DNA from: an uncultured Clostridia bacterium
Lineage (GTDB): Bacteria; Bacillota; Clostridia; Christensenellales; CAG-314
Direction: 5' to 3'
Assembly (NCBI GenBank): GCA_947625725.1
Contig: CANQPI010000009.1
Location: 194-64,193, forward strand
DNA: 64,000 nt
Both the position numbers and the translations under genes were made by a program. A model generated the notes under the pieces. It did not search any database. It saw only the letters and a program-made list of their open reading frames with translations, and was not told where the DNA came from. Of this stretch, positions 1 through 44,020 are shown one piece after another; position 1 is the stretch's first letter, and every line of letters begins with the position of its first letter.

Positions 1-3000
1 ATCATATAATTGACGGGTGTGCAACCGTCCTCTGACTTGTCAAACAATATGGACAACAAGCAAATATCTTTTTCTTCCAATTTAATCATTTCGCTGTCGA
101 TAAGGTCGCCCATGGTCAAGTTTGTTGCCAACGTCGTCATCTTGTCGGCGTTCAATTCGTCAATGCGCAGGTTGGACATTTTTTCGTTCAAGCCTTTTAC
201 TCTGGTACAGGGGTGTTCGCCGGGTACGCCGTGTACGTGTTCGCCGAGATCAGTCGTGCCATAGTCTTTACAGTCGTACCACACGTAACCGAAACACTCA
301 AAGGTGTGCATTTCTTCGCCGCTGTGTTCGTTGGGTTTGTCGCATATCAACTGCGCCTCGAAGTAAATGCCGTGTTTAATGTCGTAAATGTACCAATTGC
401 CGTCCTTGTCTTTGAAAACTTCGTCCCGGTGATGTTTGGTGTCCATATCGGTAAACTTGTGTTCCCATTGTGCGGATTGCTCTTGTTCTTTGGCTTGGCG
501 GTCCACTTCTTTGCGTTGGAAGCCCATTGCAACGCCGACTTCGATACCGTCAAGTTCGCCGTTGAGTTCGCCGATCTTTATTGCGCCGAGTTCACGCAGC
601 AGCGGGTTGGAATTGTTATCCAACTCCAACACTTCGCCGAGTTCGGTGTCGTACACGACGGACGTAATGCCTTTGCTGTCGAGTTCGCTTATTTTGAGGT
701 GCGCCATTCTGCCCAGCAAATTGTTTGCGGGAACATAACTCTTGCCCTCCTCGCTCCATTCGCCGTCGTGCGAGTGCGCGTCGGTACATTCTTGATACCA
801 CAACACGATAAAGCACTCCGCGCCGTGCGTGTGGGCAAGTTTTCCGCAGTCCGCTTCCTCGTCGGTAGAGCCGTGGCAGATTGCGGGGTCGTGTTTATGC
901 TCCGTTTTGGTGCAAGTCAGCAACGCCTCGTACCAAACGCCGCCGTCGTTTAGGGCGTATTCCACCGAGCCGTCCGTGTTTTTGGATTTTATCAAGTCGC
1001 TCACGACGTCGGTGGTGTAGTCCGCTTCGAAAACGGGTCTGCGCTTGAATTGCAACAGATTGCCCAGATACATTTGGTCTATCGCTCCGCTCAGTTCGCC
1101 CAGCGGCGTATCGGCAAGGGACGCAAGGGGCGAGGGTATATTCTCGCCCAACACGTCGCGCATAGTAAATGTCTGAATGGTCTTGTCCAGATCGCCCAAC
1201 TCGCTTACCTTTTTGTTGGCGAGTTTTGCCATCATTCCGACGACTTCCGTTCCGTCTTTGCTCCACTCAAAATTGCCCTCAACGCCGTCGCCCTTGGTGT
1301 ATTGCAACAGATCGCCCAGATACATATTGTCAATGGCGGAATCGAGGTCTTTTATTTGCGTATCCTTGATACTTGCAAGCATAGAGGGAACGCTGTCGCC
1401 CAACACGTCCGACAAGGTGAAGGTTTGTATCGTTTCGTTCAGATCGCCCAACTCGCTTACCTTTTTGTTGGCGAGTTTTGCCATCATGCCGTCAACTACC
1501 GAACCGTCCTCTTTGGTCCAAACGTAGTCGCCGTCCGTTCCGTCGCCCTGCGTGTATCCCAACATAACGCCCAAGTACAGGTCGTTTATGGCTTGTTCCA
1601 TTTCGTTGAGTTTGGCGTTTTCCAGACCTTTCAGTTGCGAGGGAATGGCGTCGCCCATCACTTCGCCGAGGGTAAAGTCCATAACGTCCAACGTGCCGAG
1701 GTCCGCTACGGTGTTGTCGGCAAGTTTTGCCATAACTCCCGTGACGGGTTCGCCCGCCGCGTCGTTCCAGCCGTCGTCCGTTTGGGTGTAGCCGAGCATG
1801 TCGCCCACGCGCAATTGTTCGACTGCGCTTGCCAGGTTGCCGACGGTGGTGTCCTTCAACGCGCGCAGTTGCGAGGGAATGTTTTCTTCGCCGCCCATAA
1901 CCTGACTGAGAGTGAGGTCGTTGATAACGCCGTTTATGTCCGTCAGGTCGTTGATTTGTTTGTTGGCAAGCACTTCGGTCAGATCTTTGACCTCGTCGTC
2001 GCCGTTTTCCCACACAAAGCCGTAGCAACCCGCAACGTTGTGTTCGTGTTCTTCCTTGCCGCAGGTGTAGTCGGGCGCGTCGCCGCAATCTTCGGTGTGA
2101 GCGTGTTGCTTGGTGCAGGTTACTTTGCCTTTGTACCAAGTTTTGCCGTCCATTGACAGCCCGAGTACTTCGCCCTCTCCGCTCAAAATTACGTATTTGG
2201 CAACTTTGTCGCCGTCGTCGTGCGGTTCGGTTTTGTACAGCGGCACAACGTCGCCGTCGGGTTTGGCGATCTCCTCCAAAGAGAAACCCATAAGTTGCCC
2301 GATATACATATTGTCTATTCCGCCGTTTATCAGTTCGCCGATAGTCATATCGGCAATGCTTTCAAACACGCCGCTCATTTCCTGCCCCGCCAACAGTTCG
2401 CGCAGGGGGATATTTGTGAGTTTGTCCATCAAGACGTCGCTGTCGCCGCCCATAAGCATGCCCACCGTAATGTCGGCAAGCGCGGCGTAAATACCGCTCG
2501 CGTCCTCGCCGAGTTCCGTTTTCCACTCGTAGCCGAAACAATCGTCGTTGTGAACGTGTTCCTGTTCGTCAATGGTGCAGGTGAGTTTTGCCTTGTACCA
2601 CACGTCGCCGTCGAGTTTGATGTATTCGTCCGAGGCTTTTCTGACGTTTGTTTCGGGTATCGGCGTGTAATCTTCGGGGTTGGTTACTTCCGTGCGCGAA
2701 AGCGCAAGCAACTGTCCCAAATACAGTCCGTCAAAAACTTCGCCGCCCATCAAGTCGCCGATAGTGTAGTCCACAAAGTTTTCCAGCAGACCGCTTATTT
2801 CCACCGAGTCGCCGAGTAGGTCGCGAATGGGGATATTGGTGAACTTGCTCATCAGCGCGTCCTGATCGCCGCTTGTGAGCATACCGACCGTCACGTCGGC
2901 GATCGCGCCGTAGATACCGCTTGCGGCGTTGTCCTCCGCGTCGTACCAGGCAAAGCCGTAGCAATCGATGTCGTGAGTGTGTTCCGTTTTGCCGCAGGTA

Positions 3001-4049
3001 TAGTTGTCGGGGTCGCCGCACTCCGCCGTGTGAGTGTGTTCCTCGATATTGCAGTTAAACCGCGCCTCGAACGCAACCCCGTCGGTATTGACCAACGCGT
3101 AGTCGCCGTCGTCGTTGCGATAGAGAGTCAAATTGTCGTTTTGGTATTCGGTGTTGTCGTAGTCGGCAAGGTCGTTGATCTCCTTGCGGTGCAGACTGAC
3201 AATATCGCCCAAGTACACGCCGTTGATGATGTCGTCGGGATTGAGGTTGCCCTCGTCGTCGATCATGTCGGCAATGGCGTTGTTTCCGATAAAGGCGTTG
3301 AGGTACTGACTGCTGTCGCCGAGCATGGCGACAATGGGCATTTTGCCCAACTCGTCAAACGCGCCGCCCTCTTTGAATTCTCTCAAAATGTTGCCGTTGA
3401 GCCCGCCGCCGATAAGCGCGCCGAGTTTGGCTTGCCCGACAGCCCACATCAAGGCGTTGTCCTCGGTTTGCTCCAACGGGAGCATGCCCATGGCTACTTC
3501 GGCTATACGCACTTCTTCGAAAACGGTAGCAATGCCGTTTTCGCCCATGAGTTCGGCAATGGTGTGAGCGGACAGTTTGTTCATAAGTTCTTCGGAAAAG
3601 AACGGAATGGGATTTCCCTCCTCGTCCGTGCCGTTGTCCACAAACATATTTACAAGCGCGGGAATAACGCTGACTTTGAGTTTGTTTGTGCCGCCGTCCT
3701 CTGCGAACAAATCGAAAATGGGTATCTCCAATATTTCCGAACGCACCTGTTTGCCGCCGAACAATTGGGACGGGTCGATATTGTAGTACTCGCAAAACTG
3801 TCCCAGCGTAAAGTAATTGCCGTTTTCATCCTGCACGCCTACTTTGTCTTTGTACAGTTTGCTGACGGATTCGGCAATTTCGTAGACGGACATATTTGCC
3901 AGATCGCCCAAAAATTCTCCGCCGCCGGGTATGAATTGACCCGTTTTGGGAATAACCGCCAATCCTATCAACGCTCCGGCGATCGCGCCGAAAAAGAATA
4001 TCACGCCGAAAATCGTTCCAAGGAAAAATGCCAAAATTCTTCTGCCCAT
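1..4049 (-). CDS. giant membrane-anchored repeat protein, C-terminus cut by window edge (>1349 aa)
   Basis: Absent from the ORF track because the frame stays open to the left edge. Hand translation from ATG 4049-4047 gives 1349 uninterrupted codons; no other minus ORF in the track uses this frame. RBS AAGAGG lies 7 nt upstream, inside the 3-prime end of the GDPD gene. N-terminus MGRRILAFFLGTIFGVIFFFGAIAGALIGLAVI looks like a single TM anchor. The rest is acidic, with 84-aa tandem repeats and five Cys/His-rich motifs. Confidence 0.8.
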   Translation of the reverse strand, partial: MGRRILAFFLGTIFGVIFFFGAIAGALIGLAVIPKTGQFIPGGGEFLGDLANMSVYEIAESVSKLYKDKVGVQDENGNYFTLGQFCEYYNIDPSQLFGGKQVRSEILEIPIFDLFAEDGGTNKLKVSVIPALVNMFVDNGTDEEGNPIPFFSEELMNKLSAHTIAELMGENGIATVFEEVRIAEVAMGMLPLEQTEDNALMWAVGQAKLGALIGGGLNGNILREFKEGGAFDELGKMPIVAMLGDSSQYLNAFIGNNAIADMIDDEGNLNPDDIINGVYLGDIVSLHRKEINDLADYDNTEYQNDNLTLYRNDDGDYALVNTDGVAFEARFNCNIEEHTHTAECGDPDNYTCGKTEHTHDIDCYGFAWYDAEDNAASGIYGAIADVTVGMLTSGDQDALMSKFTNIPIRDLLGDSVEISGLLENFVDYTIGDLMGGEVFDGLYLGQLLALSRTEVTNPEDYTPIPETNVRKASDEYIKLDGDVWYKAKLTCTIDEQEHVHNDDCFGYEWKTELGEDASGIYAALADITVGMLMGGDSDVLMDKLTNIPLRELLAGQEMSGVFESIADMTIGELINGGIDNMYIGQLMGFSLEEIAKPDGDVVPLYKTEPHDDGDKVAKYVILSGEGEVLGLSMDGKTWYKGKVTCTKQHAHTEDCGDAPDYTCGKEEHEHNVAGCYGFVWENGDDEVKDLTEVLANKQINDLTDINGVINDLTLSQVMGGEENIPSQLRALKDTTVGNLASAVEQLRVGDMLGYTQTDDGWNDAAGEPVTGVMAKLADNTVADLGTLDVMDFTLGEVMGDAIPSQLKGLENAKLNEMEQAINDLYLGVMLGYTQGDGTDGDYVWTKEDGSVVDGMMAKLANKKVSELGDLNETIQTFTLSDVLGDSVPSMLASIKDTQIKDLDSAIDNMYLGDLLQYTKGDGVEGNFEWSKDGTEVVGMMAKLANKKVSELGDLDKTIQTFTMRDVLGENIPSPLASLADTPLGELSGAIDQMYLGNLLQFKRRPVFEADYTTDVVSDLIKSKNTDGSVEYALNDGGVWYEALLTCTKTEHKHDPAICHGSTDEEADCGKLAHTHGAECFIVLWYQECTDAHSHDGEWSEEGKSYVPANNLLGRMAHLKISELDSKGITSVVYDTELGEVLELDNNSNPLLRELGAIKIGELNGELDGIEVGVAMGFQRKEVDRQAKEQEQSAQWEHKFTDMDTKHHRDEVFKDKDGNWYIYDIKHGIYFEAQLICDKPNEHSGEEMHTFECFGYVWYDCKDYGTTDLGEHVHGVPGEHPCTRVKGLNEKMSNLRIDELNADKMTTLATNLTMGDLIDSEMIKLEEKDICLLSILFDKSEDGCTPVNYM

Positions 4050-4051: not shown

Positions 4052-4807
4052 TTACCTCTTGTTTTGTATCAAATCTTTTCTTTCGGGAAGGAAAGAGTCG
4101 AATATCATATTGTCAAAGCAATCTTGCAGTTCTTCGTACTGCGACCGACTCTTTATTGTCCAACATATTATCGGAATTGTTTTTGCCCACTTTTTGAGCG
4201 ATTTGCACCTGCGTATTGTCGCCGCGTCGTAGGCAATGAATTGACTACCGTTCCACTTGCACAGCACCAGATCTCTCAACAGCCACCGTTTGAGCGGAGT
4301 AAACACCCCCGCAAAGGAACAGGACAATTGTCCGCGAACGACTTCGGGCGCGTGTACTTTGAACCAACGCACTATCAAAGGGTTAAACGACTCGATACAG
4401 TAGTGTCCTTTGTAGTTTTTCAACGCGTCGTAGGTTTTTTGTTCGACTTCGCCGATTCGGTCGTGCGTTTTGATCTCCACAACGATATTTACGCCGTTTG
4501 CCGCTTGTAGAAATTGCTCGAAAGTGGGAATGGCGCAATCGGTTTTCAGCAAACGCAACTGTTGCAGTTCGCGCAGAGTTTTGTCGCAAAGTTTGCCGCT
4601 TTCTCCCGTCATGCGTTCGAGAGAGTCGTCGTGGAATACCACCAACACGCCGTCTTTGGTCATTTGAACGTCCGTTTCGATGGCAAAATTGTTTTTTGCC
4701 GCAAGTTCGAATGCGGGCAAGGAGTTTTCCGGAACGACGGCGTTGTCAAACAAGCCTCTGTGCGCCACGTAAACGTCCGTGAGCCACTTGTATTCTTCTC
4801 TGATCAA
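4052..4807 (-). CDS. glycerophosphodiester phosphodiesterase (GDPD family)
   Basis: 251-aa ORF. VAHRGL...ENSLPAFELA...IETDVQMTKDGVLVVFHDD matches recalled GDPD motifs. RBS AAGGAG upstream. Its stop is 2 nt from the start of the downstream giant gene. Confidence 0.85.
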   Translation of the reverse strand: MIREEYKWLTDVYVAHRGLFDNAVVPENSLPAFELAAKNNFAIETDVQMTKDGVLVVFHDDSLERMTGESGKLCDKTLRELQQLRLLKTDCAIPTFEQFLQAANGVNIVVEIKTHDRIGEVEQKTYDALKNYKGHYCIESFNPLIVRWFKVHAPEVVRGQLSCSFAGVFTPLKRWLLRDLVLCKWNGSQFIAYDAATIRRCKSLKKWAKTIPIICWTIKSRSQYEELQDCFDNMIFDSFLPERKDLIQNKR

Positions 4808-6993: not shown

Positions 6994-7803
6994 ATGCTGA
7001 AAGATTTTGTTACTTACAATGGAATATCCATTCCCGCCGTGGGGTTGGGAACATGGCAAAGCGCGCCGAACGATTGCTACAACGCCGTGCGTTGGGCGTT
7101 GGAGGCAGGCTATCGCCACGTGGACACGGCTTTCGACTATCTCAACGAGCAAGCCGTCGGCAAGGCGTTGCGCGACAGCGGTTTGGGGCGCGACGAATAT
7201 TTTGTCACCACCAAATTGCCCGCCGACGTCAAAGACGCCAAACTGTGCGAACAACGGTTTTTTCAATCTTTGGACAACCTCGGCACGGATTACATAGATC
7301 TGTATCTTATACACGCGCCGTGGCCCTGGGATCAGGTGGGCAAGGATTTTACCGAGGGCAACATAGCGGTGTGGGAGCAACTGCTCGAATTCAAGCAAAA
7401 GGGGCTTGTTCGCGAAGTGGGCGTATCCAATTTCGAAATTTCCCACATTCAAGCAATATCCCGCGCCGTCGGCGTTATGCCCGCCGTCGATCAAATATAC
7501 CATTTTGTGGGAGTGACCGAACCCGAGTTGAGAGAGTACTGTCAACAAAACGGCATAGTCGTGGAGGCATATTCCCCGTTGGGTACGGGCAGACTTTTGT
7601 CCGACGAACGGCTGACGGAGATCGCGCGCGGTTACGGCGTGAGCGTCGCTCAACTTTGCATAAGATATTGCTTGCACAAAAACACTCTCCCTTTGCCCAA
7701 ATCCGTTCACCGCGAACGAATAGCGCAAAATATTTCCCTCGATTTCGATATTTCCGAGCGGGATATCGAATTTTTGGACAGCCTCGAAGGCAAAACAGTA
7801 TGA
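6994..7803 (+). CDS. aldo/keto reductase (2,5-diketo-D-gluconate reductase-like)
   Basis: 269 aa. IPAVGLGTWQ...GYRHVDTAFDY..E..VG, LHAPWP-like and EVGVSNF motifs of the AKR family. Confidence 0.85.
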   Translation: MLKDFVTYNGISIPAVGLGTWQSAPNDCYNAVRWALEAGYRHVDTAFDYLNEQAVGKALRDSGLGRDEYFVTTKLPADVKDAKLCEQRFFQSLDNLGTDYIDLYLIHAPWPWDQVGKDFTEGNIAVWEQLLEFKQKGLVREVGVSNFEISHIQAISRAVGVMPAVDQIYHFVGVTEPELREYCQQNGIVVEAYSPLGTGRLLSDERLTEIARGYGVSVAQLCIRYCLHKNTLPLPKSVHRERIAQNISLDFDISERDIEFLDSLEGKTV

Positions 7804-10033: not shown

Positions 10034-10570
10034 ATGAACATTTGGCATGATATTGCGCGTAGCAGAATAAATGCCGACGACTTTTACGCCGTCATAGAGA
10101 TCACCAAGGGCAGCAAAATGAAATACGAACTTGACAAGGAAACGGGCTTGTTGGTTTTGGACAGGATATTGTACACGTCAACTCACTATCCCGCAAACTA
10201 CGGTTTTATTCCCCGCACGCTTGCCGACGACGGCGACCCTATGGACGTGTTGGTGCTTTGCTCCGAGCCTTTGCTTGCGCGTAGTCTTGTGCGTTGCTAT
10301 CCTATCGGCGTGATAATCATGAACGACAACGGCTCTTGTGACGAAAAAATTATCGCTATACCCTTTACCGATCCCAATTACAACGGTTACAAATCCATTT
10401 CCGATTTGCCCAAGCACATTTTTGACGAAATGCAACACTTTTTCCGCGTGTACAAGGAGTTGGAAAACAAGCCGACCTCCGTATCGGAAGTACACGACGT
10501 CGAGGACGCCAAACGCATAGTGCAAAAGTCCATTGACGATTACATTGCGCAAATTTTGTCCAAGAGATAG
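10034..10570 (+). CDS. ppa: inorganic pyrophosphatase (family I)
   Basis: MNIWHDI...YAVIEITKGSKMKYELDKETG...YPANYGFIP.TL.DDGDP.DVLVL. RBS AAGGAGG precedes the ATG at 10034. Confidence 0.93.
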   Translation: MNIWHDIARSRINADDFYAVIEITKGSKMKYELDKETGLLVLDRILYTSTHYPANYGFIPRTLADDGDPMDVLVLCSEPLLARSLVRCYPIGVIIMNDNGSCDEKIIAIPFTDPNYNGYKSISDLPKHIFDEMQHFFRVYKELENKPTSVSEVHDVEDAKRIVQKSIDDYIAQILSKR

Positions 10571-10610
10571 TTCGCGCTCGGGCATTGCCCGAAAAAAGGC
10601 TTCGCTTCAA

Positions 10611-10660
10611 ACGCCACACATTTAGTAGGGGAACAAAATCCACTTGTGTGGCGTTTTCGT
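10611..10660 (+). terminator. terminator-like hairpin ACGCCACACA...TGTGTGGCGT + TTTTCGTT (module M1)
   Basis: 10-bp stem plus an inner stem, followed by a T-rich tract. It is the first structure after ppa. The same element recurs at about 11065, 11249, 41139 and 41590. Confidence 0.6.
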
Positions 10661-10945
10661 TGCAGATTATTTTTCGGGCAACACCCTCGCGCCCCTGTGA
10701 ACAATGTCGGAACTCTGATTAGAACTTTTTGTTTTGAAATAAAGTTTGCAACTGTTACAACAAAATAATGCTTTCCATTATAATGGGAAACAATTTCGGC
10801 GACTGCATTAAAAGCCTTCTCTTGGGGACGCAAGAGAAGGGGGACCGTCGTCAGACGGTGGATGAGTTTCGACTGTCAAAGCCGACTAAATATTACAATC
10901 TTTGCCTCTTTGGTTTATTCGAAAAAACATTTTTTTGCAAACGTA

Positions 10946-11012
10946 ATTTGAGTTTTGTCCGCTTGTGCGTTGTGTCCACACGCCCTGCGCTCACTCAAAT
11001 CCCTATTTTTTT
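10946..11012 (+). terminator. terminator-like element ATTTGAGT...ACTCAAAT + T7 (module M8)
   Basis: 8-bp closing stem around a GC-rich interior, then CCCTA and seven T. Copies lie at 41019-41085 and 41473-41536. Confidence 0.55.
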
Positions 11013-11286
11013 GACCAAATATAATTGACTCTCGGGCATTGCCCGAAAAAAGGCTTCGCTTCAAACGCCACACATTTAGTAGGGGAACAAAATCCACTTG
11101 TGTGGCGTTTTCGTTGCAGATTATATAGGTATTCGGGTATTCCGTGTCAAACGGCTTCGCACAGCACTTCGGGTGCTTGCACACAAAACGGCTTCACATA
11201 GTGCCTCGGGCATTGCTCGAAAAAAGGCTTCACTTCAAACGCCACACATTTAGTGAGAGAACACAACTCACTTGTGTGGCGTTTTC

Positions 11287-11570
11287 GTTGCAGATTATTT
11301 TTCGAGCAACACCCTCGGCACTTCCTAGAAGCAAGGATAGTGTTTGTTGCAGATTGTTTTGTAGTGCAACACCCTCAGTGCCCCTTTTACAAGGGCAGGT
11401 GTGTTGCAGATTATATAGGTATTCGGGTATTCCGTGTCAAATGGCTTCGTTTCGGGCTACGCCCTCGTTGCAGATTGTTTGTCACGAAACACCCTCATAC
11501 CTTGCTGGAACAAGGTTGAGTTTGCAACACCCTCGCGCCCCTGTGAACAATGTCGGAACTCTGATTGGAC
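11287..11570 (+). repeat. array of four 55-64-nt sub-repeats (GTTGCAGATT..GCAAC-ACCCTC + variable hairpin)
   Basis: GTTGCAGATT starts at 11287, 11346, 11403 and 11467, giving units of 59, 57, 64 and 55 nt. The array ends in the CACCCTCGCGCCCCTGTGAACAATGTCGGAAC module. Confidence 0.7.
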
Positions 11571-11970
11571 ATCTTGTTTCGAGATAATATTGGTAGCGAA
11601 TGAATTGCTTGCCCTTTGAAAGGATGAAGTGGTATTCGCGTTGTATCAAAACATTGCTTTCCACTATAATGGGAAACGCTGTTTTTCTTTTGCACTCACT
11701 AATTACCGGGTCGGAACTCTGATTAGAACGGTTTGTTTTGAAATAAAGTTTGCAACCGACAAATAATTTCCCCCGTCGAAACACTCGGTGGTACTCGCTA
11801 TTTCGCTAAAACGGTGCTTTCCATTATAATGGGAAGCAAAGTCGGCAACGAAGAAGTAACTTCCTCGGCGGCAATGCGCGCGGTGTTTTTGTTCCGTCCC
11901 GACAAAATTTCGCCCCAAACTTCGCCCGAAACGATTTTTACAATTTGCGCGCAAAATAGCCATCTCCGTA

Positions 11971-11999
11971 TTGACTTGCGCGTAGATTTACTATATACT
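11971..11999 (+). promoter_or_regulatory. sigma-A-type promoter for the DUF2974 operon (TTGACT-17-TATACT)
   Basis: Read directly, ~50 nt upstream of the ATG at 12051. Confidence 0.5.
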
Positions 12000-12050
12000 T
12001 GTGGCATATAGTGATCTATGAGATTGCTACGTAAATTGTGGGGTAAAGTT

Positions 12051-13148
12051 ATGAACATCACATCGTACGTAAAGAAAAATCGCGAAACTTTTGCCGACGC
12101 CCCGTTCAACGAGGTGGACAGTCTTGTTCTGTGCGAACTTTCATATCTTCATTACACTCGGGCGTTTGCGGGCGCGCCGCGCAAAACTCTCCGCGACATG
12201 GCAAAGGACGTCAAAACTCACAACAAAGACACCCTTTTGCCGCTGGAAAACATCGGCTTGCTCAAAGCGATCGCAAACAGCCCCCGTTTTGCCGACGTAA
12301 AGGTGGGGTACTTCCGCGAGCGCAACAGCGTCAAGCGCGAAACGCGTTTTGCCGCAATGACCTTCGAACTCGCGCCCGATCTTCACTATGTGGCGTTTCG
12401 TGGCACGGACATCACTCTGTTGGGGTGGAAAGAGGACTTCAACATGGCGATCGTCAAGGCGATCCCCTCTCAAAAGTTGGCGTTGCAATATTTGCAGACC
12501 GTTGCGTCCAAAGTGGACGGCGACCTGATTTTGGGCGGGCACAGCAAGGGCGGCAATCTGGTGGTGTATGCGGGAGTGTACGCCTCGCCCGAGTTGCAGG
12601 ACAGGTTGCTCGCAATATACGACCATGACGGTCCGGGCTTTCGCACGAACATTTTCGGCGATTCCAAATATCTGCGCGTTGCCGACAAGATACGCAAAAC
12701 CGTTCCGCACGATTCCATTATCGGCATGTTGCTCAACGTCATGGAACGCTACGAGGTGGTGGAGAGCAACAGTTTTTCCGTCATGCAACACAACCCGTTC
12801 AGTTGGCAGATAGAGGACAATCATTTCAAAAAACTCCCCGAAACGGCGCGCACGTCCGTTGCAATGGAACAGACCCTTACTACTTGGATATCCGGTTTGG
12901 ATCGCAAAACCACCCAAAAACTTACAAACGCGATATTCGCCGTGTTGTTCGGCAGCGGCGCGACGACCGTTCCGCAACTGCTTCGCCGTCCTATCGGGCG
13001 TTTACGCAACATGAAGCGGGCTTTTGACGCGCTGGACGACGAGAGCAAGTCGTTGCTCACGGGCAACGGCAAATATTTGATGTCTTTGTGGTTTGCCTCG
13101 ATGAAACACGTGTACGGCATAGTCGCGCCCGAGGTCGATCCGCAATGA
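12051..13148 (+). CDS. DUF2974 (Mbeg1-like) alpha/beta-hydrolase-fold protein, paralog 1
   Basis: MNITSYVKKNRETFADAPFNEVDSLVLCELSYL... with GGHSKGGNL (GxSxG), HDGPGF and VPHDSIIG. The family assignment is from memory. I prefer the ATG at 12051 over the track start at 12018. Confidence 0.78.
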   Translation: MNITSYVKKNRETFADAPFNEVDSLVLCELSYLHYTRAFAGAPRKTLRDMAKDVKTHNKDTLLPLENIGLLKAIANSPRFADVKVGYFRERNSVKRETRFAAMTFELAPDLHYVAFRGTDITLLGWKEDFNMAIVKAIPSQKLALQYLQTVASKVDGDLILGGHSKGGNLVVYAGVYASPELQDRLLAIYDHDGPGFRTNIFGDSKYLRVADKIRKTVPHDSIIGMLLNVMERYEVVESNSFSVMQHNPFSWQIEDNHFKKLPETARTSVAMEQTLTTWISGLDRKTTQKLTNAIFAVLFGSGATTVPQLLRRPIGRLRNMKRAFDALDDESKSLLTGNGKYLMSLWFASMKHVYGIVAPEVDPQ

Positions 13149-14239
13149 ATATCGTAGACTATGTCAAAAAGAACAAAGCCTCCTTTGCCGACAGCCCTCT
13201 CAACGAGGTGGACGGGTTGGTTTTTGCCGAACTCGCCTACTTGAATTTCGGCAGGAGAGCCTCGGGCATGCCCACAAAAACGTTGGGCGAGTTTTCCTCG
13301 AAACCCGACGTCCTTGTAGAGGGAACGCTCTCGTTGTTGAGAAAAAACAACCTGCGTCTGCTCAAAGCGATTGCCGCAAGTCCGCGCTTTGCCCCCGTCG
13401 AGGCGGGGTTTTTCAGAGTGCGCAACAGCGACGAAAAAGACGTGCGTTTTGCCGCAGTCACCTTTCGGATAGGTCAAGGGAAGTATCACGTTTCTTTTCG
13501 CGGGACGGGCGTTTCGCTTGTCGGTTGGCGGGAAAATTTCAAAATGGCTCTTTTGTCCGTTATTCCCACGCAAAGGCTCGCGCTTCGTTACCTCGTTGAC
13601 GTTGCGTCGCGCACGGAGGGCGATTTGACGGTGGGCGGATTGAGCAAAGGGGGAAATTTGTCCGTGTTTTCCGTCACGAACGCCCCCGCGGAAGTCAAAT
13701 CTCGCATACGGTCCGTTTTCAATTACGACGGACCGGGTTTCAAGTTGAGTATTTTCGACGATCCGCGTTACATCGAGATCTCTCCCCGCATACACAAACT
13801 CGTGCCGCACGACTCCATTGTGGGAATGTTGCTCACGTCCTCGCAGGTGTACGACGTGGTGGACAGCAACGGCATTTCCGTCAAACAGCACGATCCCTTT
13901 ACCTGGCAAGTCAAGGACTGCGAAAATTTCAAAAAACTGCCCCAAACTACTCGCAGATCGCAAGTTACCGACGCGGCGGTCACGGAATGGCTGGCGGGAT
14001 TGGACGAGCGCACCCGTCGCAAATTCGTCTACGCCGTTTTTTCCATTGTGGAAGGCAGCGGCGCAAAAGAGGTCGGGGACTTGTTGCGCAAACCCTTGCG
14101 CAAAATACGTCTTATGAAAAAGTCCTACGAACAGTTGGACGCGCCGAGCAAGGAGTTGATCTCGCGAGGCGGCAAGCAACTGCTCTCAATGTGGTTGGGC
14201 GAACTGTTCGCTTTTTCCAAAAAGAAAGCCGAGCAGTGA
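13145..14239 (+). CDS. DUF2974 (Mbeg1-like) alpha/beta-hydrolase-fold protein, paralog 2
   Basis: MNIVDYVKKNKASFADSPLNEVDGLVFAELAYL... with GGLSKGGNL, YDGPGF and VPHDSIVG. The start overlaps the stop of paralog 1 (ATGA). Confidence 0.78.
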   Translation: MNIVDYVKKNKASFADSPLNEVDGLVFAELAYLNFGRRASGMPTKTLGEFSSKPDVLVEGTLSLLRKNNLRLLKAIAASPRFAPVEAGFFRVRNSDEKDVRFAAVTFRIGQGKYHVSFRGTGVSLVGWRENFKMALLSVIPTQRLALRYLVDVASRTEGDLTVGGLSKGGNLSVFSVTNAPAEVKSRIRSVFNYDGPGFKLSIFDDPRYIEISPRIHKLVPHDSIVGMLLTSSQVYDVVDSNGISVKQHDPFTWQVKDCENFKKLPQTTRRSQVTDAAVTEWLAGLDERTRRKFVYAVFSIVEGSGAKEVGDLLRKPLRKIRLMKKSYEQLDAPSKELISRGGKQLLSMWLGELFAFSKKKAEQ

Positions 14240-35865: not shown

Positions 35866-36082
35866 TTTTTTCTGCCCCGAGCCGCAATCGAACAGTCAAT
35901 TTGCAAACTGTTTGTAACGTTACCCGTTTTTGCCGCATATAATGTACAAAAACAGTGGGGGAATGTATGAAAAGCAGAATTTATTGTTTCAAGTTGCCGC
36001 GTTTTTTGGGAAACATTTTGCGCTTGCTCTTGGGCAAAGCGGCGATAGGAAAAAAATAATATATCAGGTTTTCTATGATAAT

Positions 36083-36111
36083 AAAGGCTGTCGCACAAGG
36101 CGACAGCCTTT
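36083..36111. terminator. bidirectional intrinsic terminator (AAAGGCTGTCGC / GCGACAGCCTTT)
   Basis: 12-bp perfect stem flanked by an A-run and a T-run, between rpe (+) and the XRE gene (-). Confidence 0.6.
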
Positions 36112-36192
36112 ATTTGCAAATATTTATATATTGAAAATGTTATTTGACTGTACACAACACAAATTTATGGCATCAATGCGGCGTATTTTGAT

Positions 36193-36411
36193 TTAATTTT
36201 CCAAACCCAATAGATAATCTACGCTTTCGTCGAAAAATCGAGCCATATCGGCAAGCAAGGAAAGAGGTGGCTCGCGCTGCCCCTTTTCATAATGTAAGTA
36301 TGTCACGCTGTGAATTTTCAATGCGGTGGCAACTTCTTTTTGCGTAAGACCGCGTTCTTCGCGTAATTCTTTCAATCTTTTACTTAACAAAATTTCCATA
36401 CTACTTGACAT
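36193..36411 (-). CDS. XRE-family helix-turn-helix transcriptional regulator
   Basis: LSKRLKELREERGLTQKEVA..L......YL.YEKG.REP.L..L...A.FF..S.DYLLG. The start is uncertain (ATG at 36411 or 36399). Lies in an AT-rich islet. Confidence 0.75.
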   Translation of the reverse strand: MSSSMEILLSKRLKELREERGLTQKEVATALKIHSVTYLHYEKGQREPPLSLLADMARFFDESVDYLLGLEN

Positions 36412-36460
36412 ATTACCATTTTGGTAGTAAAATAATACACAACTACCAAATTGGTAGCAA
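36405..36460. promoter_or_regulatory. overlapping divergent promoters with two palindromic operators
   Basis: The + promoter is TTGACA(36405-10)-17-TAAAAT(36428-33), with palindrome TACCA-TTT-TGGTA (36414-26) in its spacer. The - promoter is TTGCTA(36460-55)-17-TATTAT(36437-32), with palindrome CTACCA-AAT-TGGTAG (36443-57) in its spacer. Operator centres are 30 bp apart and the -10 boxes overlap. Confidence 0.5.
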
Positions 36461-36485
36461 ACAAACATAATGGAGGAAAAATTTT

Positions 36486-37064
36486 ATGAGGCGCAAAAGG
36501 TTAGTTTTTATTGTATTGGCAATGGTAACAATGATACTTTGTTGTACTTGTCTGAGCGCATGCAAAAAATGTGAGCAACACGTAGGAGTTGGCGAGTGTA
36601 CAGAGTGTGGTGCAGATTATTTTACTTTACTCAAAAAACATTGCATTAAACATGGAAAGTATAAATCAGGTACGTATTCTATAACATACTTTCCACAAGA
36701 GTCATCAACAGATACGGTTTTCTTGTTGGCTTATGATATATCGAGTGATGTAATCTCTATGTTTCTTCAATACAAAAATTCAGACATAATGATCGATATG
36801 GATGAGATTGATGGAGTATATAATTATTTATGCACATCCACATCCGGCGGATCTGAGAATACTATGAAAGGAACGCTAAATGGTTCGACTTTGCACCAAC
36901 TTTCCGCGTTGCCATATACTTATTCGAGTGCAAGCAGTTATTTAAATTCGGCTCTGGCAAAACTTGCATGTTCATTAGCGCAACTTCTTGTTCCATCCGC
37001 AGACTTGTATTTCATAGAAAACGACATGCCAATCAGATGCGTCAACTTGGGTTTTGCCGAGTAA
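36486..37064 (+). CDS. putative lipoprotein of unknown function
   Basis: Signal peptide MRRKRLVFIVLAMVTMILCCTCLSAC with a lipobox-like L-S-A-C, then a CxxC..C..C cluster. RBS GGAGG. AT-rich codon usage relative to its neighbours. Confidence 0.6.
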   Translation: MRRKRLVFIVLAMVTMILCCTCLSACKKCEQHVGVGECTECGADYFTLLKKHCIKHGKYKSGTYSITYFPQESSTDTVFLLAYDISSDVISMFLQYKNSDIMIDMDEIDGVYNYLCTSTSGGSENTMKGTLNGSTLHQLSALPYTYSSASSYLNSALAKLACSLAQLLVPSADLYFIENDMPIRCVNLGFAE

Positions 37065-37092
37065 TATAATAAAACTTGGCTTGTAATAAAAT

Positions 37093-37121
37093 TAGGGGAC
37101 TGCCAATACTGCGGTCCCCTA
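37093..37121. terminator. hairpin TAGGGGAC / GTCCCCTA between convergent genes
   Basis: 8-bp GC-rich stem with a 13-nt loop, between the lipoprotein gene (+) and the PAP2 gene (-). Confidence 0.5.
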
Positions 37122-40805: not shown

Positions 40806-41018
40806 ACCGACCAGGCGCAAGTCGGTTCGGTTGATTACACAACCGACCCCTACGGGGCGCAAGTGCGCCGACTTGGTCGGACTGCTAAGGAAGTCGCTAC
40901 ACGCGCCTTCATTTTCGGGCTCCCACGCAATGCGAGTGTCACTGCGTGGGAGGAGTCGCAACCCCGCCAACCCCCGCAAGGGCTGCAATCTCGGTACACG
41001 CCCGTGATTGCAGGAGGG
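40806..41018 (+). ncRNA. candidate structured RNA: unique GC-rich multi-helix segment leading into repeat locus B
   Basis: Begins right after the yloV stop. Nested helices: CCGACCA(40807-13)/TGGTCGG(40874-80) and GTCGG(40821-25)/CCGAC(40868-72) enclose three hairpins. Further helices: CTCCCACGCA/TGCGTGGGAG (40920-52), CCC-GCAA-GGG (40973-82) and CTGCAATC/GATTGCAG (40983-41014). No ORF. Family unknown. Confidence 0.35.
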
Positions 41019-41085
41019 ATTTGAGTTTTGTCCGCTTGTGCGTTGTATCCACACGCCCAGCGCTCACTCAAATCTCTATTTTTTT
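41019..41085 (+). terminator. M8 terminator-like element, locus B copy 1
   Basis: ATTTGAGT...ACTCAAAT followed by CTCTA and T7. Confidence 0.55.
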
Positions 41086-41472
41086 GACCAGATGCAATTG
41101 GCGCTCGGGTATCCCCTGCAAAAAGGCTTCACTTCAAACGCCACACATTTAGTGAGAGAACGCAACTCACTTGTGTGGCGTTTTTGTTGCAGATTATTTT
41201 GCAGGGGACACCCTCGCTCCCCTGTGAATAAGGTCGGAACTTTGATTGGAATTGTTTGTTTTGAAATAAAGTTTGCAACTGTTACAACAAAACAATGCTT
41301 TCCATTATAATGGGAAACATAGTTGACAACTGCATTAAAAGCCTTCTCTTGGGGACGCAAGAGAAGGGGGACCGTCGCAAGACGGTGGATGAGTTTCGAC
41401 TGTCAAAGCCGTCTAGATATTACAATTATTGCCTCTTGGGTTTATTTGATAAAACAGTTTTTTGCAGACGTG

Positions 41473-41536
41473 ATTTGAGTTTTCGCTTGTGCACTGTGTC
41501 CACGCGCCCTGCGCTCACTCAAATCTCTATTTTTTT
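41473..41536 (+). terminator. M8 terminator-like element, locus B copy 2
   Basis: ATTTGAGT...ACTCAAAT followed by T7. The interior has a 3-nt deletion and substitutions relative to the other copies. Confidence 0.55.
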
Positions 41537-41773
41537 GACCAGATGCAATTGGTACTCGGGAATCCCCTGCAAAAAGGCTTCACTTCAAACGCCACACATT
41601 TAGTGAGGGAACACAACTCACTTGTGTGGCGTTTTTGTTGCAGATTATATAGGTATTCGGGTATTCCGTGTCAAACGGCTTCACACAGCACTTTGGGTGC
41701 TTGCACACAAAACGGCTTCACATAGTGCCTCGGGCATTGCTCGAAAAAAGGCTTCGCTTCGGGCTACGCCCTC

Positions 41774-41993
41774 GTTGCAGATTATTTTTCGAGCAACACC
41801 CTCGGCACTCCCTTGAAGCAAGGATAATGCTTGTTGCAGATTGTTTTGTTGTACAACACCCTCAGTGCCCCTTTTACAAGGGCAAGTGTGTTGTAGATTG
41901 TTTGTTACGAAACACCCTCATACCTCGGTGGAACAAGGTTGAGTTTGCAACACCCTTGCGCTTGTGTGAAAAAGGTCGGAACTATGATTGGAC
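41774..41993 (+). repeat. array of three 55-59-nt sub-repeats (locus B version)
   Basis: GTTGCAGATT at 41774 and 41833, GTTGTAGATT at 41890. The 64-nt third unit of locus A is absent here. Confidence 0.7.
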
Positions 41994-42341
41994 AACTTGT
42001 ACCGTAACAAGGTTGCTAACTGTGAGAGGGCTTACCCTTTGAGGACATGAAGTGGTATTTGCAACTAACAAAACAATGCTTTCCATTATAATGGGAAACA
42101 ACGTCGGCGACTGCATTAAAAGCCTTCTCTTGGGGACGCAAGAGAAGGGGGACCGTCGTCAGACGGTGGATGAGTTTCGACTGTCAAAGCCGACTAAATA
42201 TTACGATCATTGCCTCTTGCGTTTATTTGATAAAGTTGTGCAATACCCTCGCACCCGTGTGAACAAGGTCGTACATTTTTGAAACTGCGCTCGCATATCC
42301 CTCGCAAAGTTGAATTTTACATTGATTTTACATATCGGACG

Positions 42342-42746
42342 TTAAGCGTTGCCTAACTTTTTTTCCGTTTTTCTCTTTTTCGGAGCGACAAGAGCGTAAC
42401 TGTCGTCAATGAGTTGCGACAGCAACGTCATATCCACCGTACCGTCCAGCAAAACGCCTATCCAATGCAGTTTGTTGAGGTGGTAGCAGGGCACAAAACC
42501 CTTTTGGTCAAGCAACACCTCGCGTGCAAACGGGTCGCACTTGATGTCCAAAATGTCTACAACGCCCTCGCCGTCCAGCCCGAGCCTTTTACGCGGCACG
42601 TTCATGATAATGCCGTACCATTTGCGCGTGTCGGCGCGCCTCAGCACGGCGTAATTGGGGACGTCCGCCCACATGTATTCCGCCTCAGTACCGTATTGAT
42701 TTGACGCATAGTTCAGCACGTCTTGTCTTGTAGCCCCGTTTGTCAT
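42342..42746 (-). CDS. MmcQ/YjbR family DNA-binding protein
   Basis: 134 aa; ...YAVLRRADTRKWYGIIMNVPRKRLGL......VDILDIKCDP....LL...G..P.YH.NK.HWI.VLLDG. Family assignment from memory. RBS GGAG. Confidence 0.8.
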   Translation of the reverse strand: MTNGATRQDVLNYASNQYGTEAEYMWADVPNYAVLRRADTRKWYGIIMNVPRKRLGLDGEGVVDILDIKCDPFAREVLLDQKGFVPCYHLNKLHWIGVLLDGTVDMTLLSQLIDDSYALVAPKKRKTEKKLGNA

Positions 42747-42827: not shown

Positions 42828-43029
42828 AGACCTCGCCGTCGCATGCTTGCAATATTTTTGCCACGCTTGCCGCGCAATTCGGTATATCTTGTTAGCGAAA
42901 AAAGCGGTGCGCTCGTCAAGACAAACTCACGCCTAAATGCCAATTGACTTTTTGACCGTTTGATTTTTCTGTGCGTTTATGATATGATGATTGTACGATA
43001 AGTGTTAATTTAGCGGGGATAATTAAAGA

Positions 43030-43674
43030 ATGAATACGATTGAAGAAATGATACGAAATAGGGATTTCAAATACGAGCCGCCTTATTTTTATAATAATCC
43101 TTTTTCATTGCGGTGTGAATTGGGTATTGACGAAAGCAACGAGGCGTATTTGACTATCGCAAAGAAAAGAGCGGCGGAAATTTTTAATATTCTATTTGAA
43201 AACAATGTCGATTTGTTCTTCTTTGACAATTACATATATGACTTTGATTTTGATACGGGAAAAACTGTGTATATCAATAACCTGATTTCATTGGAGAAAA
43301 AGCGGCTTAAATTCTCTTTGGGCTATCAAAAGAAGTTTAAGCACGTAATTATCAGGGATATCCCCTTTGATAAAGACGACGATAATAACGACGAAATTGT
43401 TCGAAGAAATCGAATTTGTTGTTATCCGAATAAGAAATTCAACGCCATTGAGGCTATAAACTCTCAAATTGATAATCAAGAAAATCCGATTATCCATTTC
43501 GTATCATTTGACAATAGCTGCATATTCTCGGTATATGATGATAGAGGGTGCGATATCGTGTTCTTCGATAAAAAGAAATTCCAACACTTCTACCCGCTCT
43601 TGCAAACGTATTTTCTTGGCTATGATTTGGCTTTAATGGAACAAAGATTGAATAACTGTAAGGGAACAAAATAA
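43030..43674 (+). CDS. DUF3885-like hypothetical protein (AT-rich accessory gene)
   Basis: 214 aa, markedly AT-rich. The C-terminal SVYDDRGCDIVFF resembles the YDDRGC motif I recall from DUF3885 proteins. Not verified. Confidence 0.5.
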   Translation: MNTIEEMIRNRDFKYEPPYFYNNPFSLRCELGIDESNEAYLTIAKKRAAEIFNILFENNVDLFFFDNYIYDFDFDTGKTVYINNLISLEKKRLKFSLGYQKKFKHVIIRDIPFDKDDDNNDEIVRRNRICCYPNKKFNAIEAINSQIDNQENPIIHFVSFDNSCIFSVYDDRGCDIVFFDKKKFQHFYPLLQTYFLGYDLALMEQRLNNCKGTK

Positions 43675-43741
43675 TATGGAAGAATATTGGGGCATTTTCA
43701 AAGATGAGTTGTGATTTATTGTTTAATCATGAAGTATAAGG

Positions 43742-43770
43742 AAGGCGAGGGCGGTTTGTCCTCGCCTTTT
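43742..43770 (+). terminator. intrinsic terminator after the DUF3885-like gene
   Basis: AAGGCGAGG-N9-CCTCGCCTT followed by TTTG. Confidence 0.6.
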
Positions 43771-43815
43771 GTATAGAAAAAGATCAACCCAACTCGGTTC
43801 GAATTAGGTTGGTCG

Positions 43816-43902
43816 TGGTGCCGCTGACCGGGTTCGAACCGGTACAGTATTGCTACCGAGGGATTTTAAGTCCCTTGCGTCTGCCTGTTTCGCCACAGCG
43901 GC
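43816..43902 (-). tRNA. tRNA-Leu (anticodon UAA), CCA encoded
   Basis: Hand-folded cloverleaf: acceptor GCCGCTG/CAGCGGC, anticodon arm AGGGA-CTTAAAA-TCCCT, long variable arm with a GCAA loop, T arm ACCGG-TTCGAAC-CCGGT, 3-prime ACCA. Confidence 0.93.
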
Positions 43903-43911
43903 ATATATTTC

Positions 43912-43941
43912 AACTGCGAAGCACATTTCGGCTTCGCAGTT
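43912..43941 (-). other. perfect 11-bp hairpin in the tRNA-Cys/tRNA-Leu spacer
   Basis: AACTGCGAAGC-N8-GCTTCGCAGTT with no clear U-run. Possibly a processing or stability element. Confidence 0.45.
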
Positions 43942-43946
43942 GTGTT

Positions 43947-44020
43947 TGGAGGCACCACCCAGACTCGGACTGGGGGTGGAGCTTTTGCAGAGCTCTGCCT
44001 TACCACTTGGCTATGGTGCC
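43947..44020 (-). tRNA. tRNA-Cys (anticodon GCA), CCA encoded, atypical T-loop
   Basis: Acceptor GGCACCA/TGGTGCC, discriminator U, anticodon arm GAGCT-CTGCAAA-AGCTC, T arm CCCAG-TCCGAGT-CTGGG. The T-loop reads TCCGA instead of the usual TTCGA. Confidence 0.85.

Follow-up and report, generated by a model that had tools for sequence, protein, structure and literature searches.

Two collinear loci of nested, terminator-bearing palindromic repeats in an uncultured Clostridia bacterium: a possible REPIN/BOX-like family

A 64,000-nucleotide (nt) stretch of DNA from an uncultured Clostridia bacterium (Christensenellales; GenBank assembly GCA_947625725.1, contig CANQPI010000009.1, positions 194 to 64,193), referred to here as the window, contains two intergenic loci, A and B, which are built from the same palindromic modules. 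Locus A (10571-11850, + strand) starts directly after the ppa stop codon (TAG, 10568-10570), and locus B (41019-42300, + strand) lies ~30 kb away between yloV and a convergent yjbR gene, whose stop is at 42342. We favor an interpretation, which we regard as evenly balanced between right and wrong, in which both loci represent a lineage-restricted, non-coding, terminator-bearing modular palindromic repeat family that is REPIN/BOX-like and evolves at the DNA level. The anatomy of the loci, the covariation of their stems, the terminators, the lack of a coding signal and the absence from relatives were all observed directly.

Comparison of the two loci by blastn and by global alignment indicated that locus B is a collinear paralog of locus A, as proposed by a first-pass annotation of this DNA, and that collinearity extends for ~1.1 kb with three whole-module indels. 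In the blastn analysis, A 10571-11412 paired with B 41098-41899 at 85.5% identity and A 11467-11677 with B 41890-42099 at 81% identity. Global alignment of 10571-11850 with 41019-42300 gave 981 matches, 137 mismatches and 326 gap columns, and the identity over aligned pairs was 87.7%, slightly below the earlier estimate of roughly 90%. Collinearity had been proposed over the full length of the loci; it stopped at A 11677 and B 42099, and the tails (A 11678-11850 and B 42100-42300) failed to align. The indels consisted of a leading 79-nt M8 module found in B only, so that the annotated order of M8 followed by M1 to M8 applied to B and not to A; a 37-nt swap of the core in the innermost unit, which is long in A and short in B; and an extra 64-nt unit found in A only. 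Substitutions were clustered and many were compensatory, in agreement with the described pattern of whole-unit indels and clustered substitutions. The motif GTTGCAGATT occurred 10 times in the window versus an expected 0.17 and the 18-nt core of a palindromic hairpin five times versus an expected 0, and hence these repeats have not arisen by chance. Within the window, every copy of the arms, palindrome and M8 module described below was on the + strand and inside loci A and B.

The basic unit of the family, designated H1, was an imperfect hairpin of 90 to 130 nt in which a + strand terminator core was located between two arms of ~30 nt, left (L) and right (R). From the outside, this unit consisted of a unit-specific outer stem of 4 to 6 bp, a 2x2 TC/TC mismatch, GGG:CCC, a CA/CA mismatch and a unit-specific middle stem of 12 to 13 bp ending in A5:T5, followed by a constant, asymmetric inner region with GGCTTC(R)C on the left and (Y)GTTGCAGATT(R)T on the right. 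The inner region is predicted to be able to pair as GC/UU-UU/C-G/R-Y with AGATTR bulged. Both mismatches and the inner motifs GGCTTC and GTTGCAGATT were invariant across copies. The arms formed inverted repeats of 27 to 32 bp with pair-specific identical cores and constant flanking motifs. The core took one of three forms, a 45-nt hairpin (AAACGCCACACA...TGTGTGGCGTTT), a short GGGC-TAC-GCCC or a whole further unit, and each R arm was followed by a small hairpin of the CCTTG..CAAGG type. Units were complete, split or nested up to three deep.

Nested units formed a mirrored sub-repeat array with the order L_a L_b L_c core R_c R_b R_a, in which each L arm was complementary to its own R arm. The L arms abutted at 36 to 37 nt and the R arms recurred at 57 to 64 nt, with 20 to 23 nt between them. 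In each locus, this array interrupts the R arm of the second H1 unit directly after GTTGCAGATTAT, and as this junction is common to A and B it must be older than the A/B split. The H1 units alternated with a module series of ~330 nt, M2 to M8, that contained GTCGGAACTCTGATT. Hairpins in this series were GCTTTCCATTATAATGGGAAAC with a TATAAT loop (invariant in five copies) and the two GC hairpins CCTTCTCTTG-GGGACG-CAAGAGAAGG and CCGTC-GYMA-GACGG, and the 3' part comprised an AU-rich stretch with TGCCTCTT followed by M8, a 55-nt hairpin with a T7 tract. The best-conserved part was M4 to M7, and a block of ~50 nt in M4 to M6 was identical in three of three copies.

Covariation was analyzed in six contiguous H1 units, comprising five window units and a single unit of another metagenome (contig L006); as internal copies are not independent, the statistics overstate the number of events and should be read as a comparison of two loci and one foreign unit. 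Standard pairs occupied 95.8% of cells and 12 of 25 pairs had changed on both sides, values that were reached by 0 of 500 shuffles, while sliding the partner by 1 to 3 columns left ~50% of cells paired. The 12-bp middle stems of the first units of the two loci, A1 and B1, differed by four double substitutions, and the pair closing the TC/TC loop covaried from C-G to T-A. Covariation was almost purely Watson-Crick (2 G-U pairs versus 19 double changes in 142 cells), a pattern that is predicted by complementarity at the DNA level and is unusual for an RNA family. These results indicated that the helices had been preserved and had not simply undergone neutral decay. The previously suggested selection on the non-coding sequence cannot be equated with a functional RNA: covariation was almost purely Watson-Crick, and each locus contained four + strand terminators. 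Together, these two features point to a constraint on the DNA itself or to copy-correction.

The evidence for which molecule or strand folds was mixed. On the + strand, the invariant mismatches set pyrimidine against pyrimidine or A against C; on the − strand, they become tandem G-A and tandem G-U. The − strand hairpin contained an uninterrupted 17-bp helix and was the more stable in eight of eight units. Refolding with shuffles gave − strand z-scores of -6.7 to -8.3 for three window units and of -1.1 for the L006 unit, and in sliding windows the z-scores favored the − strand by a small margin only, in 11 of 15 windows of locus A and in 11 of 18 of locus B. Outside the conserved mismatches, a strand comparison of G-U versus A-C asymmetry yielded about equal counts. 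The palindromic hairpin had a conserved G-U on the + strand, and three substitutions in B1 would maintain pairing of a predicted M4/M7 helix through G-U wobble on the same strand.

Each of the five long H1 cores had a GC-rich hairpin and a U-rich tract, and was thus predicted from its sequence to be a + strand intrinsic terminator. The folding free energies (dG) of these cores were -18.5 to -22.6 kcal/mol, with 6 to 7 U residues in the first eight tail positions; the tails (UUUUCGUU or UUUUUGUU) had the pattern UUUU(C/U)GUU and an A6 tract was present at the H1 center. Further terminators were predicted at three M8 hairpins, where dG was -16 to -19.6 kcal/mol and a 4-nt spacer separated the hairpin from a U7 tract, giving four per locus on the + strand. 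A single long + strand RNA across either locus is therefore unlikely and, as the R arm is 3' of the termination point, an L:R helix cannot form in the terminated + strand transcript. On the − strand, the M5 hairpin was followed by CUUUUAAU, a weak terminator-like site, and its copy at 42148-42123 could end the yjbR transcript. Promoter scans of both strands were at background level and no convincing promoter was detected. An acceptable -35 was found for one of the five TATAAT palindromes (CTAACA-16-TATAAT), the others matching at 2 to 3 of 6 positions at a spacing of 17 to 18 nt.

Identities between the copies were mosaic. The first and second H1 units exhibited 95 to 97% identity within a locus and 84 to 85% identity between loci, and the L_a-L_c block was 98% identical between loci. 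Modules M4 to M7 of locus A had 95% identity to the second B copy versus 92% to the collinear first B copy, and the L arm of the split unit had changed in concert with that of the complete unit despite the loss of its own partner. Whole-unit indels were flanked by repeated motifs, and the extra unit of locus A was bounded by the GTTGCAGATT motif and duplicated a 47-nt junction at 98% identity. The mosaic identities and motif-bounded indels argue for unequal crossing-over and gene conversion within a repeat family, processes that would also account for the presence of L_a without a partner in locus A, where the nested fold of locus B was not conserved. The mosaic pattern itself indicates that gene conversion is ongoing.

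The distribution of the repeat was examined with a covariance model (CM) of H1, which detected seven + strand copies with scores of >50 bits, all in loci A and B and none elsewhere in the window. No unit was detected in 317 kb of related DNA. The related sequences included 15 yloV loci, with YloV 91 to 96% identical at the protein level, all of which shared the upstream synteny priA ... rpmB-asp23-yloV and none of which contained the repeat locus. In many Firmicutes the asp23-yloV block continues with recG, and locus B had been assumed to occupy the position of this gene. This assumption failed: recG did not follow yloV in any of the 15 relatives, and no recG-like gene was present among the window open reading frames (ORFs) scanned. 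Recent duplication or mobility, which the first-pass annotation offered as an alternative to selection, was supported by the absence of the locus from the orthologous site in relatives and by the mosaic identities.

The region 3' of yloV in the relatives was hypervariable. Depending on the relative, it contained an XRE-type helix-turn-helix gene with yjbR, tRNA genes (in L008), a gene for a nitroreductase (in L010), a rhodanese/ATP_bind_3 gene adjacent to the integrase of a prophage (in L012) or 1.4 kb that had no genes but an IS200-like transposase pseudogene (at 2830-2930 of L019). This 1.4-kb gap, present in L019 and L020, was considered as an orthologous repeat locus and was rejected because its sequence is unrelated. 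The yloV 3' junction was a hotspot of change in gene content among close relatives generally (L007-L020, L038).

A metagenome scan with the R-arm pattern gave a single match, the complete unit in L006 (92.9 bits), which is located 3 nt past the TAG stop of ileS on a contig of a spore-forming Clostridia. A second, degenerate unit was present ~50 nt further on (7490-7600), with an L arm (TATCGGGCATTTGCTTAAAAACACCTTCAC) and no recognizable R arm. In relatives with a 90% identical IleS, no unit was found and the next gene overlapped the ileS stop. An exhaustive profile-free search with an 86-amino-acid (aa) ORF from the repeat detected two real relatives, both fragments of the repeat: one of 75 aa on a 550-nt ENA contig (P0241), whose first part was B1-like and last part A1-like, and one of 63 aa on a 2910-nt ENA contig (P0242), in which M4-M5 was joined to an R_a-like arm. 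Further, differently arranged copies therefore exist in public assemblies. A weak match (E-value 6e-6) of the same spurious ORF to a predicted protein of 511 aa with ~10 near-identical tandem repeats of ~44 aa (P0243) is probably to another translated DNA repeat, unrelated to the H1 family. A scan of genome contigs of GTDB representatives for the palindromic hairpin gave only four isolated matches, which lay in unrelated contexts and were attributed to chance. Of three patterns scanned against viral sequences, two gave no match and the third gave 10 chance matches, none of which was confirmed by the CM, and blastn searches of plasmids and phages were negative.

A scheme for the origin of the loci can be proposed from these results. 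The repeat would have been gained at variable 3' intergenic junctions, and one composite of 1.1 to 1.3 kb would have been duplicated to a second 3' intergenic site. Unequal crossing-over would later have produced the whole-unit indels, and gene conversion would have acted both inside each locus and from one to the other. Arm complementarity would be kept in the DNA, through hairpin or cruciform formation or through templated copy-correction as proposed for REPINs, and not by the terminated + strand RNA. The element would be mainly a self-propagating or duplicative passenger. Its supply of 3'-end hairpins and terminators to ppa and to the yloV operon would be a by-product, as would a possible − strand terminator of yjbR. 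Maintenance at the DNA level, mobility and use of the terminators are inferred.

Several observations weigh against this scheme. REP, BOX and MITE (miniature inverted-repeat transposable element) families are usually scattered, and the remaining 61 kb of the window had no dispersed single units. Neither a transposase gene nor a RAYT gene was detected among the window ORFs scanned, and no target-site duplications or conserved termini were found, the outermost stems being variable. The mirrored, pair-specific complementarity (a-a, b-b, c-c) requires nested insertion or selection, neither of which was directly observed. The tandem G-A and G-U of the − strand are classical RNA motifs, and this strand folded better in all eight units. 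Finally, the identical M4-M6 block and the palindrome that is invariant in five copies suggest a function beyond selfish persistence.

The loci could alternatively encode a structured non-coding RNA, most plausibly one or more − strand RNAs with H1 rods (17-bp helix, tandem G-U, tandem G-A and UAAUCU bulge) as protein-binding modules, or otherwise a read-through + strand RNA with L:R duplexes processed, for example, by RNase III. This alternative is consistent with the fold z-scores of -5 to -8, the strong covariation and the conserved non-Watson-Crick positions, which are RNA-like on the more stable − strand. Locus B is also directly 3' of yjbR on this strand, the unique 213-nt segment between yloV and locus B folds better on it (z-score of -5.4), and the M4/M7 helix keeps its pairing through G-U on the + strand. 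We nevertheless consider a structured RNA rather unlikely. Each locus has four strong + strand terminators, G-U intermediates are nearly absent from the covarying stems, and the nested structure differs between A and B, L_a being partnerless in A. The strand signals conflict, with the palindromic hairpin and M4/M7 favoring + and the arms favoring −, and neither strand has a convincing promoter. Absence from close relatives would be unusual for a functional RNA gene, and in locus A, as in L006, a − strand RNA would run antisense to the genes on either side. A multi-copy small RNA (sRNA) gene of ~220 nt spanning M3 to M8 was judged decidedly unlikely. Such a gene would be transcribed from a promoter at the TATAAT palindrome, which could double as an operator. 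Its RNA would carry a hairpin at the 5' end, expose CCUCUU as a single-stranded anti-Shine-Dalgarno-like seed and finish with the M8 terminator, and the H1 units would act as terminators or insulators between cassettes. The perfect conservation of the palindrome in five copies, one of which passes the promoter scan, the position of the M8 + strand terminator ~220 nt downstream, and the conservation of M4 to M7 with its identical ~50-nt block are as expected for this cassette, but the -35 matches of the other copies were poor (2 to 3 of 6), no extended -10 was present, promoter scans were at background, two of the five palindromes were without a downstream module and Rfam contained no homologous sRNA.

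Other alternatives assign the arms to a dedicated machinery. It is unlikely, in our estimate, that they are recognition sites either of nested invertible terminator switches, with combinatorial control of read-through, or of a protein that binds the − strand hairpin (tandem G-A, GGG:CCC, tandem G-U and UAAUCU bulge) as RNA or single-stranded DNA; if they were, the repeats would be a new class of structured repeat with loop cargo, whose GGCTTC / GTTGCAGATT loop and conserved mismatches would be the signature of a new recognition system. The switch in its specific form, in which the arm pairs are recombination sites and flipping of ~70 to 330 bp would reverse the terminator and gate read-through (to the Mbeg1-like genes after A, or antisense into yjbR in B), appeared very unlikely. 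Inverted repeats of 27 to 32 bp with pair-specific identical cores and constant flanking motifs fit this proposal, as does Watson-Crick-only covariation, which is expected if both sites must be identical; the core terminator is orientation-dependent (tail UUUUCGUU on +, UUUGAAGC if inverted), and the cwpV switch is a precedent in Clostridia (PMC2784873). All 10 units had the same inner orientation, however, and no flipped junction was present in the sequences examined. The innermost segments of ~70 bp are very short for synapsis, the window contained no recombinase gene and, downstream of locus B, no gene runs in the same direction that could be controlled. Derivation from a larger mobile element, as a scar or as miniaturized ends (for example, juxtaposed Tn7- or Mu-like ends with transposase-binding sites, or attachment remnants of a prophage or integrative and conjugative element), was considered highly improbable. 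Three abutting direct repeats (L_a-L_c, 36 to 37 nt) do face three spaced inverted copies (R_c-R_a, 57 to 59 nt), as in transposon ends, and sites just 3' of conserved housekeeping genes at synteny breakpoints resemble homing sites. Transposase-binding sites would, however, leave the pair-specific complementarity of the variable stems unexplained; no terminal consensus, target-site duplications or nearby mobile-element genes were found; phage, plasmid and viral collections gave no match; and the 29 kb between the loci is core genome that is syntenic with relatives.

Searches for known RNAs, proteins and array types were negative. At gathering thresholds, Rfam 15 detected two tRNAs only in the whole window, and at E-values up to 10 the best matches in the two loci scored 14 to 20 bits versus thresholds of 32 to 70. 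The families covered included ROOL, GOLLD, OLE, HEARO, 6S, ribozymes and group II introns. Six-frame translation of locus A detected no protein homolog. The ORFs MLSIIMGN... (68 to 88 aa) and MSFDCQ... (30 aa) were open in three copies and were rejected as genes because they had no ribosome-binding site and no family in Pfam or NCBIfam; differences between their copies, counted by eye, were 2 synonymous versus 6 to 13 non-synonymous. A hammerhead reading of CTGATTAG...GAAA in M2-M3 was discarded, the core G8 being missing, the motif mutated in B1 and Rfam negative. A CRISPR array was excluded because the stretches of 20 to 23 nt between R arms are conserved small hairpins common to A and B, the L arms abut and no cas genes were found. 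Integron attC sites were excluded by the lack of RYYYAAC / GTTRRRY boxes at unit ends on either strand and by nesting of units without cassettes. For a MITE, the outermost 4 to 6 bp are variable and complementary and are not direct repeats, and no termini are conserved; an apparent target-site duplication, 'CTCG', was rejected because its first and last positions change together as a base pair, from C-G to T-A. A replication origin at locus A, suggested by a skew minimum and a DnaA-box-like TGTATCCACA in M8, was dismissed as gene orientation does not switch there and the box is not conserved between copies. Literature searches with strings of the repeat sequence returned irrelevant matches only.

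Both loci had been described as starting immediately after the stop codon of a housekeeping gene, which is correct for A; in B, the repeats start 213 nt past the yloV stop. The intervening unique, GC-rich structured spacer (40806-41017) matched only itself by blastn in the window. Within 40806-41018, the first 67 nt were matched at 100% identity by an independent ENA contig of 1.8 kb (L001) that stops at this point. This segment contained six GCAA motifs and a cloverleaf-like fold (40806-40880), and its folding on the − strand (z-score of -5.4) was far better than that on the + strand (-2.25). It had no match in Rfam, and a tRNA-like reading of 40806-40880 was rejected as ARAGORN was negative.

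The first + strand module of locus B, M8 copy 0 (41018-41085), consisted of a long hairpin (GATTTGAGT...ACTCAAATC) followed by TCTA and T7 (dG of -19.6 kcal/mol with a U7 tail). It shared 93% identity with M8 copy 1 and 92% with the M8 of locus A, and is probably the intrinsic terminator of the asp23-yloV operon. The complete H1 unit B1 (41098-41224, + strand) comprised an L arm (41098-41130), a core terminator (41136-41180, tail TTTTTGTT) and an R arm (41186-41224); it had a CM R1 score of 114.8 bits, fold z-scores of -6.15 on + and -8.3 on −, and a core dG of -21.2 kcal/mol with 7 of 8 U in the tail. It was followed on the + strand by M2-M7 copy 1 (41225-41471), with GTCGGAACT.TGATT, the palindromic hairpin GCTTTCCATTATAATGGGAAAC (41297-41318), CCTTCTCTTG-GGGACG-CAAGAGAAGG (41342-41367), CCGTC-GCAA-GACGG and the AU-rich stretch with TGCCTCTT; this copy shared 90 to 92% identity with A 10696-10944 and 92.5% with B copy 2. 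M8 copy 1 (41472-41536, + strand) was a terminator-like hairpin with T7 (dG of -17.1 kcal/mol).

The split + strand unit B2 (41549-41648) contained an L arm, a core terminator (41587-41631, dG of -22.6 kcal/mol) and the R-inner GTTGCAGATTAT, with its R-outer at 41944-41965 past the nested array. Its CM R1 score was 53 bits, and it was 95% identical to B1 and 85% to the collinear A copy. The nested array a(b(c)) (41649-41943, + strand) consisted of L_a 41649-41682, L_b 41687-41719, L_c 41724-41755, the core GGGC-TAC-GCCC, R_c 41774-41809, R_b 41833-41868 and R_a 41890-41925. Its minimum free energy fold comprised the three nested arm pairs (z-score of -5.4), and unit c had a CM score of 93.6 bits. 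Beyond the array, all on the + strand, were the B2 R-outer (GCAACACCCTTGCGC), an M2 copy (GTCGGAACTATGATTGG) and a linker (41944-42069), which aligned to A 11524-11647, the linker being poorly conserved at 78.6%; the second palindromic hairpin (42078-42099) and M4-M7 copy 2 (42070-42234), 95% identical to A 10768-10926; and a degenerate R-outer with an M2 remnant (CAATACCCTCGCACCCGTGTGAACAAGGTCGTAC; 42235-42300), of direct-repeat family D5, at which locus B ends. A − strand hairpin (42148-42123) followed by CTTTTAAT was terminator-like and is a possible yjbR terminator.

Locus A begins with the H1 unit A1 (10571-10697, + strand; CM R1 score of 117.7 bits), whose core (10609-10653, dG of -18.5 kcal/mol, tail TTTTCGTT) is probably the ppa terminator. 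The modules M2-M7 and M8 follow on the same strand (10698-11017), with the palindrome at 10770-10791 and M8 at 10945-11001, then T7. The split unit A2 and its nested array (11025-11545, + strand) contained L_a, L_b, L_c, a long core terminator (11237-11281), R_c, R_b and the extra unit d (11413-11505), and gave CM matches at 11022-11154, 11199-11326 and 11413-11505. The + strand tail (11546-11850) was decayed and comprised an M2 copy, a linker, palindromic hairpins (11656-11677 and 11816-11837) and an M2-M3 copy (11708-11756).

The neighboring genes identified by Pfam were ppa, Asp23, a FakA-like yloV gene, the convergent YjbR gene and two Mbeg1-like genes after locus A, in agreement with the assignment of ppa, yloV and a yjbR-like gene as flanking genes. 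The final 17 nt of ppa (TTTTGTCCAAGAGATAG, 10554-10570) resembled the M8 tail (TTTTTGACCAAATATAA / TTTTTGACCAGATGCAA, 11008-11024 and 41532-41548) at ~11 of 20 positions; the repeat unit may extend into the terminal part of ppa, or the resemblance may be due to chance. Just to the right of locus A, a terminator-like hairpin was present on the − strand (11910-11934) with no upstream − strand gene, followed by a promoter-like site (11971-11999, TTGACT-17-TATACT) of the Mbeg1-like gene; the two Mbeg1-like (PF11187) paralogs are in tandem at 12018-14239, directly 3' of the locus. Patches of low GC content (0.37 to 0.39) at 36000-37100 and 43000-44020 flanked the rpmB-asp23-yloV block. In these patches, where relatives differ in gene content, were an ORF of no family (36486-37064) and a DUF3885 gene adjoining tRNA-Leu(TAA) and tRNA-Cys(GCA) on the − strand. 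At the left end of the window (1-4040), AT skew was strongly negative (down to -0.24), GC skew was negative and the long + strand ORFs had a shadow-like composition and no Pfam or NCBIfam match; the true gene there is probably on the − strand, a large repetitive ORF that continues beyond the left end of the window. A GDPD-like gene (4052-4807, − strand) was next.

Comparison with known systems identified partial likenesses to several of them. The ROOL, GOLLD, OLE and raiA RNAs are of similar size (0.4 to 1.3 kb), with dense secondary structure and uncultured Firmicute hosts, but the loci had no Rfam match up to an E-value of 10, contained internal + strand terminators and consisted of reiterated identical modules, the structure not being conserved between the two copies. 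The A6 tract, GC-rich hairpin and U-rich tail directly after a gene are those of bidirectional or A-tract/U-tract terminators, whereas the terminators here are set in ~60 nt of extra conserved complementary arms and occur four times per locus, a repetition not needed for termination alone. In cwpV of Clostridium difficile, imperfect inverted repeats of 21 bp flank 195 bp and an intrinsic terminator is formed in one orientation only (PMC2784873). The H1 units shared with cwpV/RecV invertons the arrangement of imperfect inverted repeats around a short segment with an orientation-dependent terminator, and differed in the lack of observed inversion, the shorter segments, the nested sites, the lack of a nearby recombinase and a position downstream of the neighboring gene.

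The BOX elements of Streptococcus pneumoniae (boxA-boxB(n)-boxC) are modular and intergenic and can carry terminators or promoters (PMC3049150). Like BOX, ERIC and Correia-type MITEs, the loci were modular and non-coding, with terminal modules that pair around variable internal modules, an intergenic and often 3'-untranslated location and variation between strains by whole modules. They had no sequence similarity to these elements, however, and differed in their nested, mirrored, pair-specific arms, in the lack of TA or other target-site duplications and in forming two large clusters versus ~100 scattered BOX copies.

REP/BIME elements and REPINs are mobilized by RAYT / TnpA-REP Y1 transposases. 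REPs and REPINs are palindromes of 20 to 40 bp with a terminal GTAG or CGTC tag; REP clusters are reiterated with flanking DNA, REP dimers fold as one large stem-loop and REPs can be inserted in palindromes (PMC3733652). The H1 family departed from this pattern in its unit length (90 to 130 nt versus 20 to 40 nt), in L and R arms that are not simple inverted copies (GGCTTC versus GTTGCAGATT), in the lack of a mirrored CTAC tag 3' of H1 and in a core that is a canonical terminator. The window contained two clusters in 64 kb with no singletons and no RAYT among the ORFs scanned. The H1 family is thus not a member of the REP or BOX families: its unit is three times too long, its arm asymmetry is fixed, it has no mirrored tag or target-site duplication, and neither dispersal nor a transposase was seen within the 64-kb window.

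The likenesses to REP/BIME/REPIN elements were nonetheless extensive. H1 units are extragenic imperfect palindromes just 3' of stop codons, form clusters reiterated with flanking DNA, can fold as doublets into one long stem-loop and have compensatory stems with conserved mismatches. A tetranucleotide of purine-TAG type, which recalls the GTAG tag of REPs, was present 5' of 6 of the 10 H1 units (ATAG three times, GTAG once and ACAG twice). Loci of this kind break short-read assemblies, as the related copies on contigs of 550, 1832 and 2910 nt illustrate, and so are systematically under-represented in catalogs of metagenome-assembled genomes. The three-deep mirrored nesting with pair-specific compensatory stems is a compact natural case of hairpin repeats growing, homogenizing and supplying terminators. 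To our knowledge, a REP/REPIN-type family has not been reported from Clostridia, and if the interpretation favored here is correct, loci A and B would be the first REPIN/BOX-like, terminator-carrying palindromic repeat family described in uncultured gut Clostridia (Christensenellales-like).

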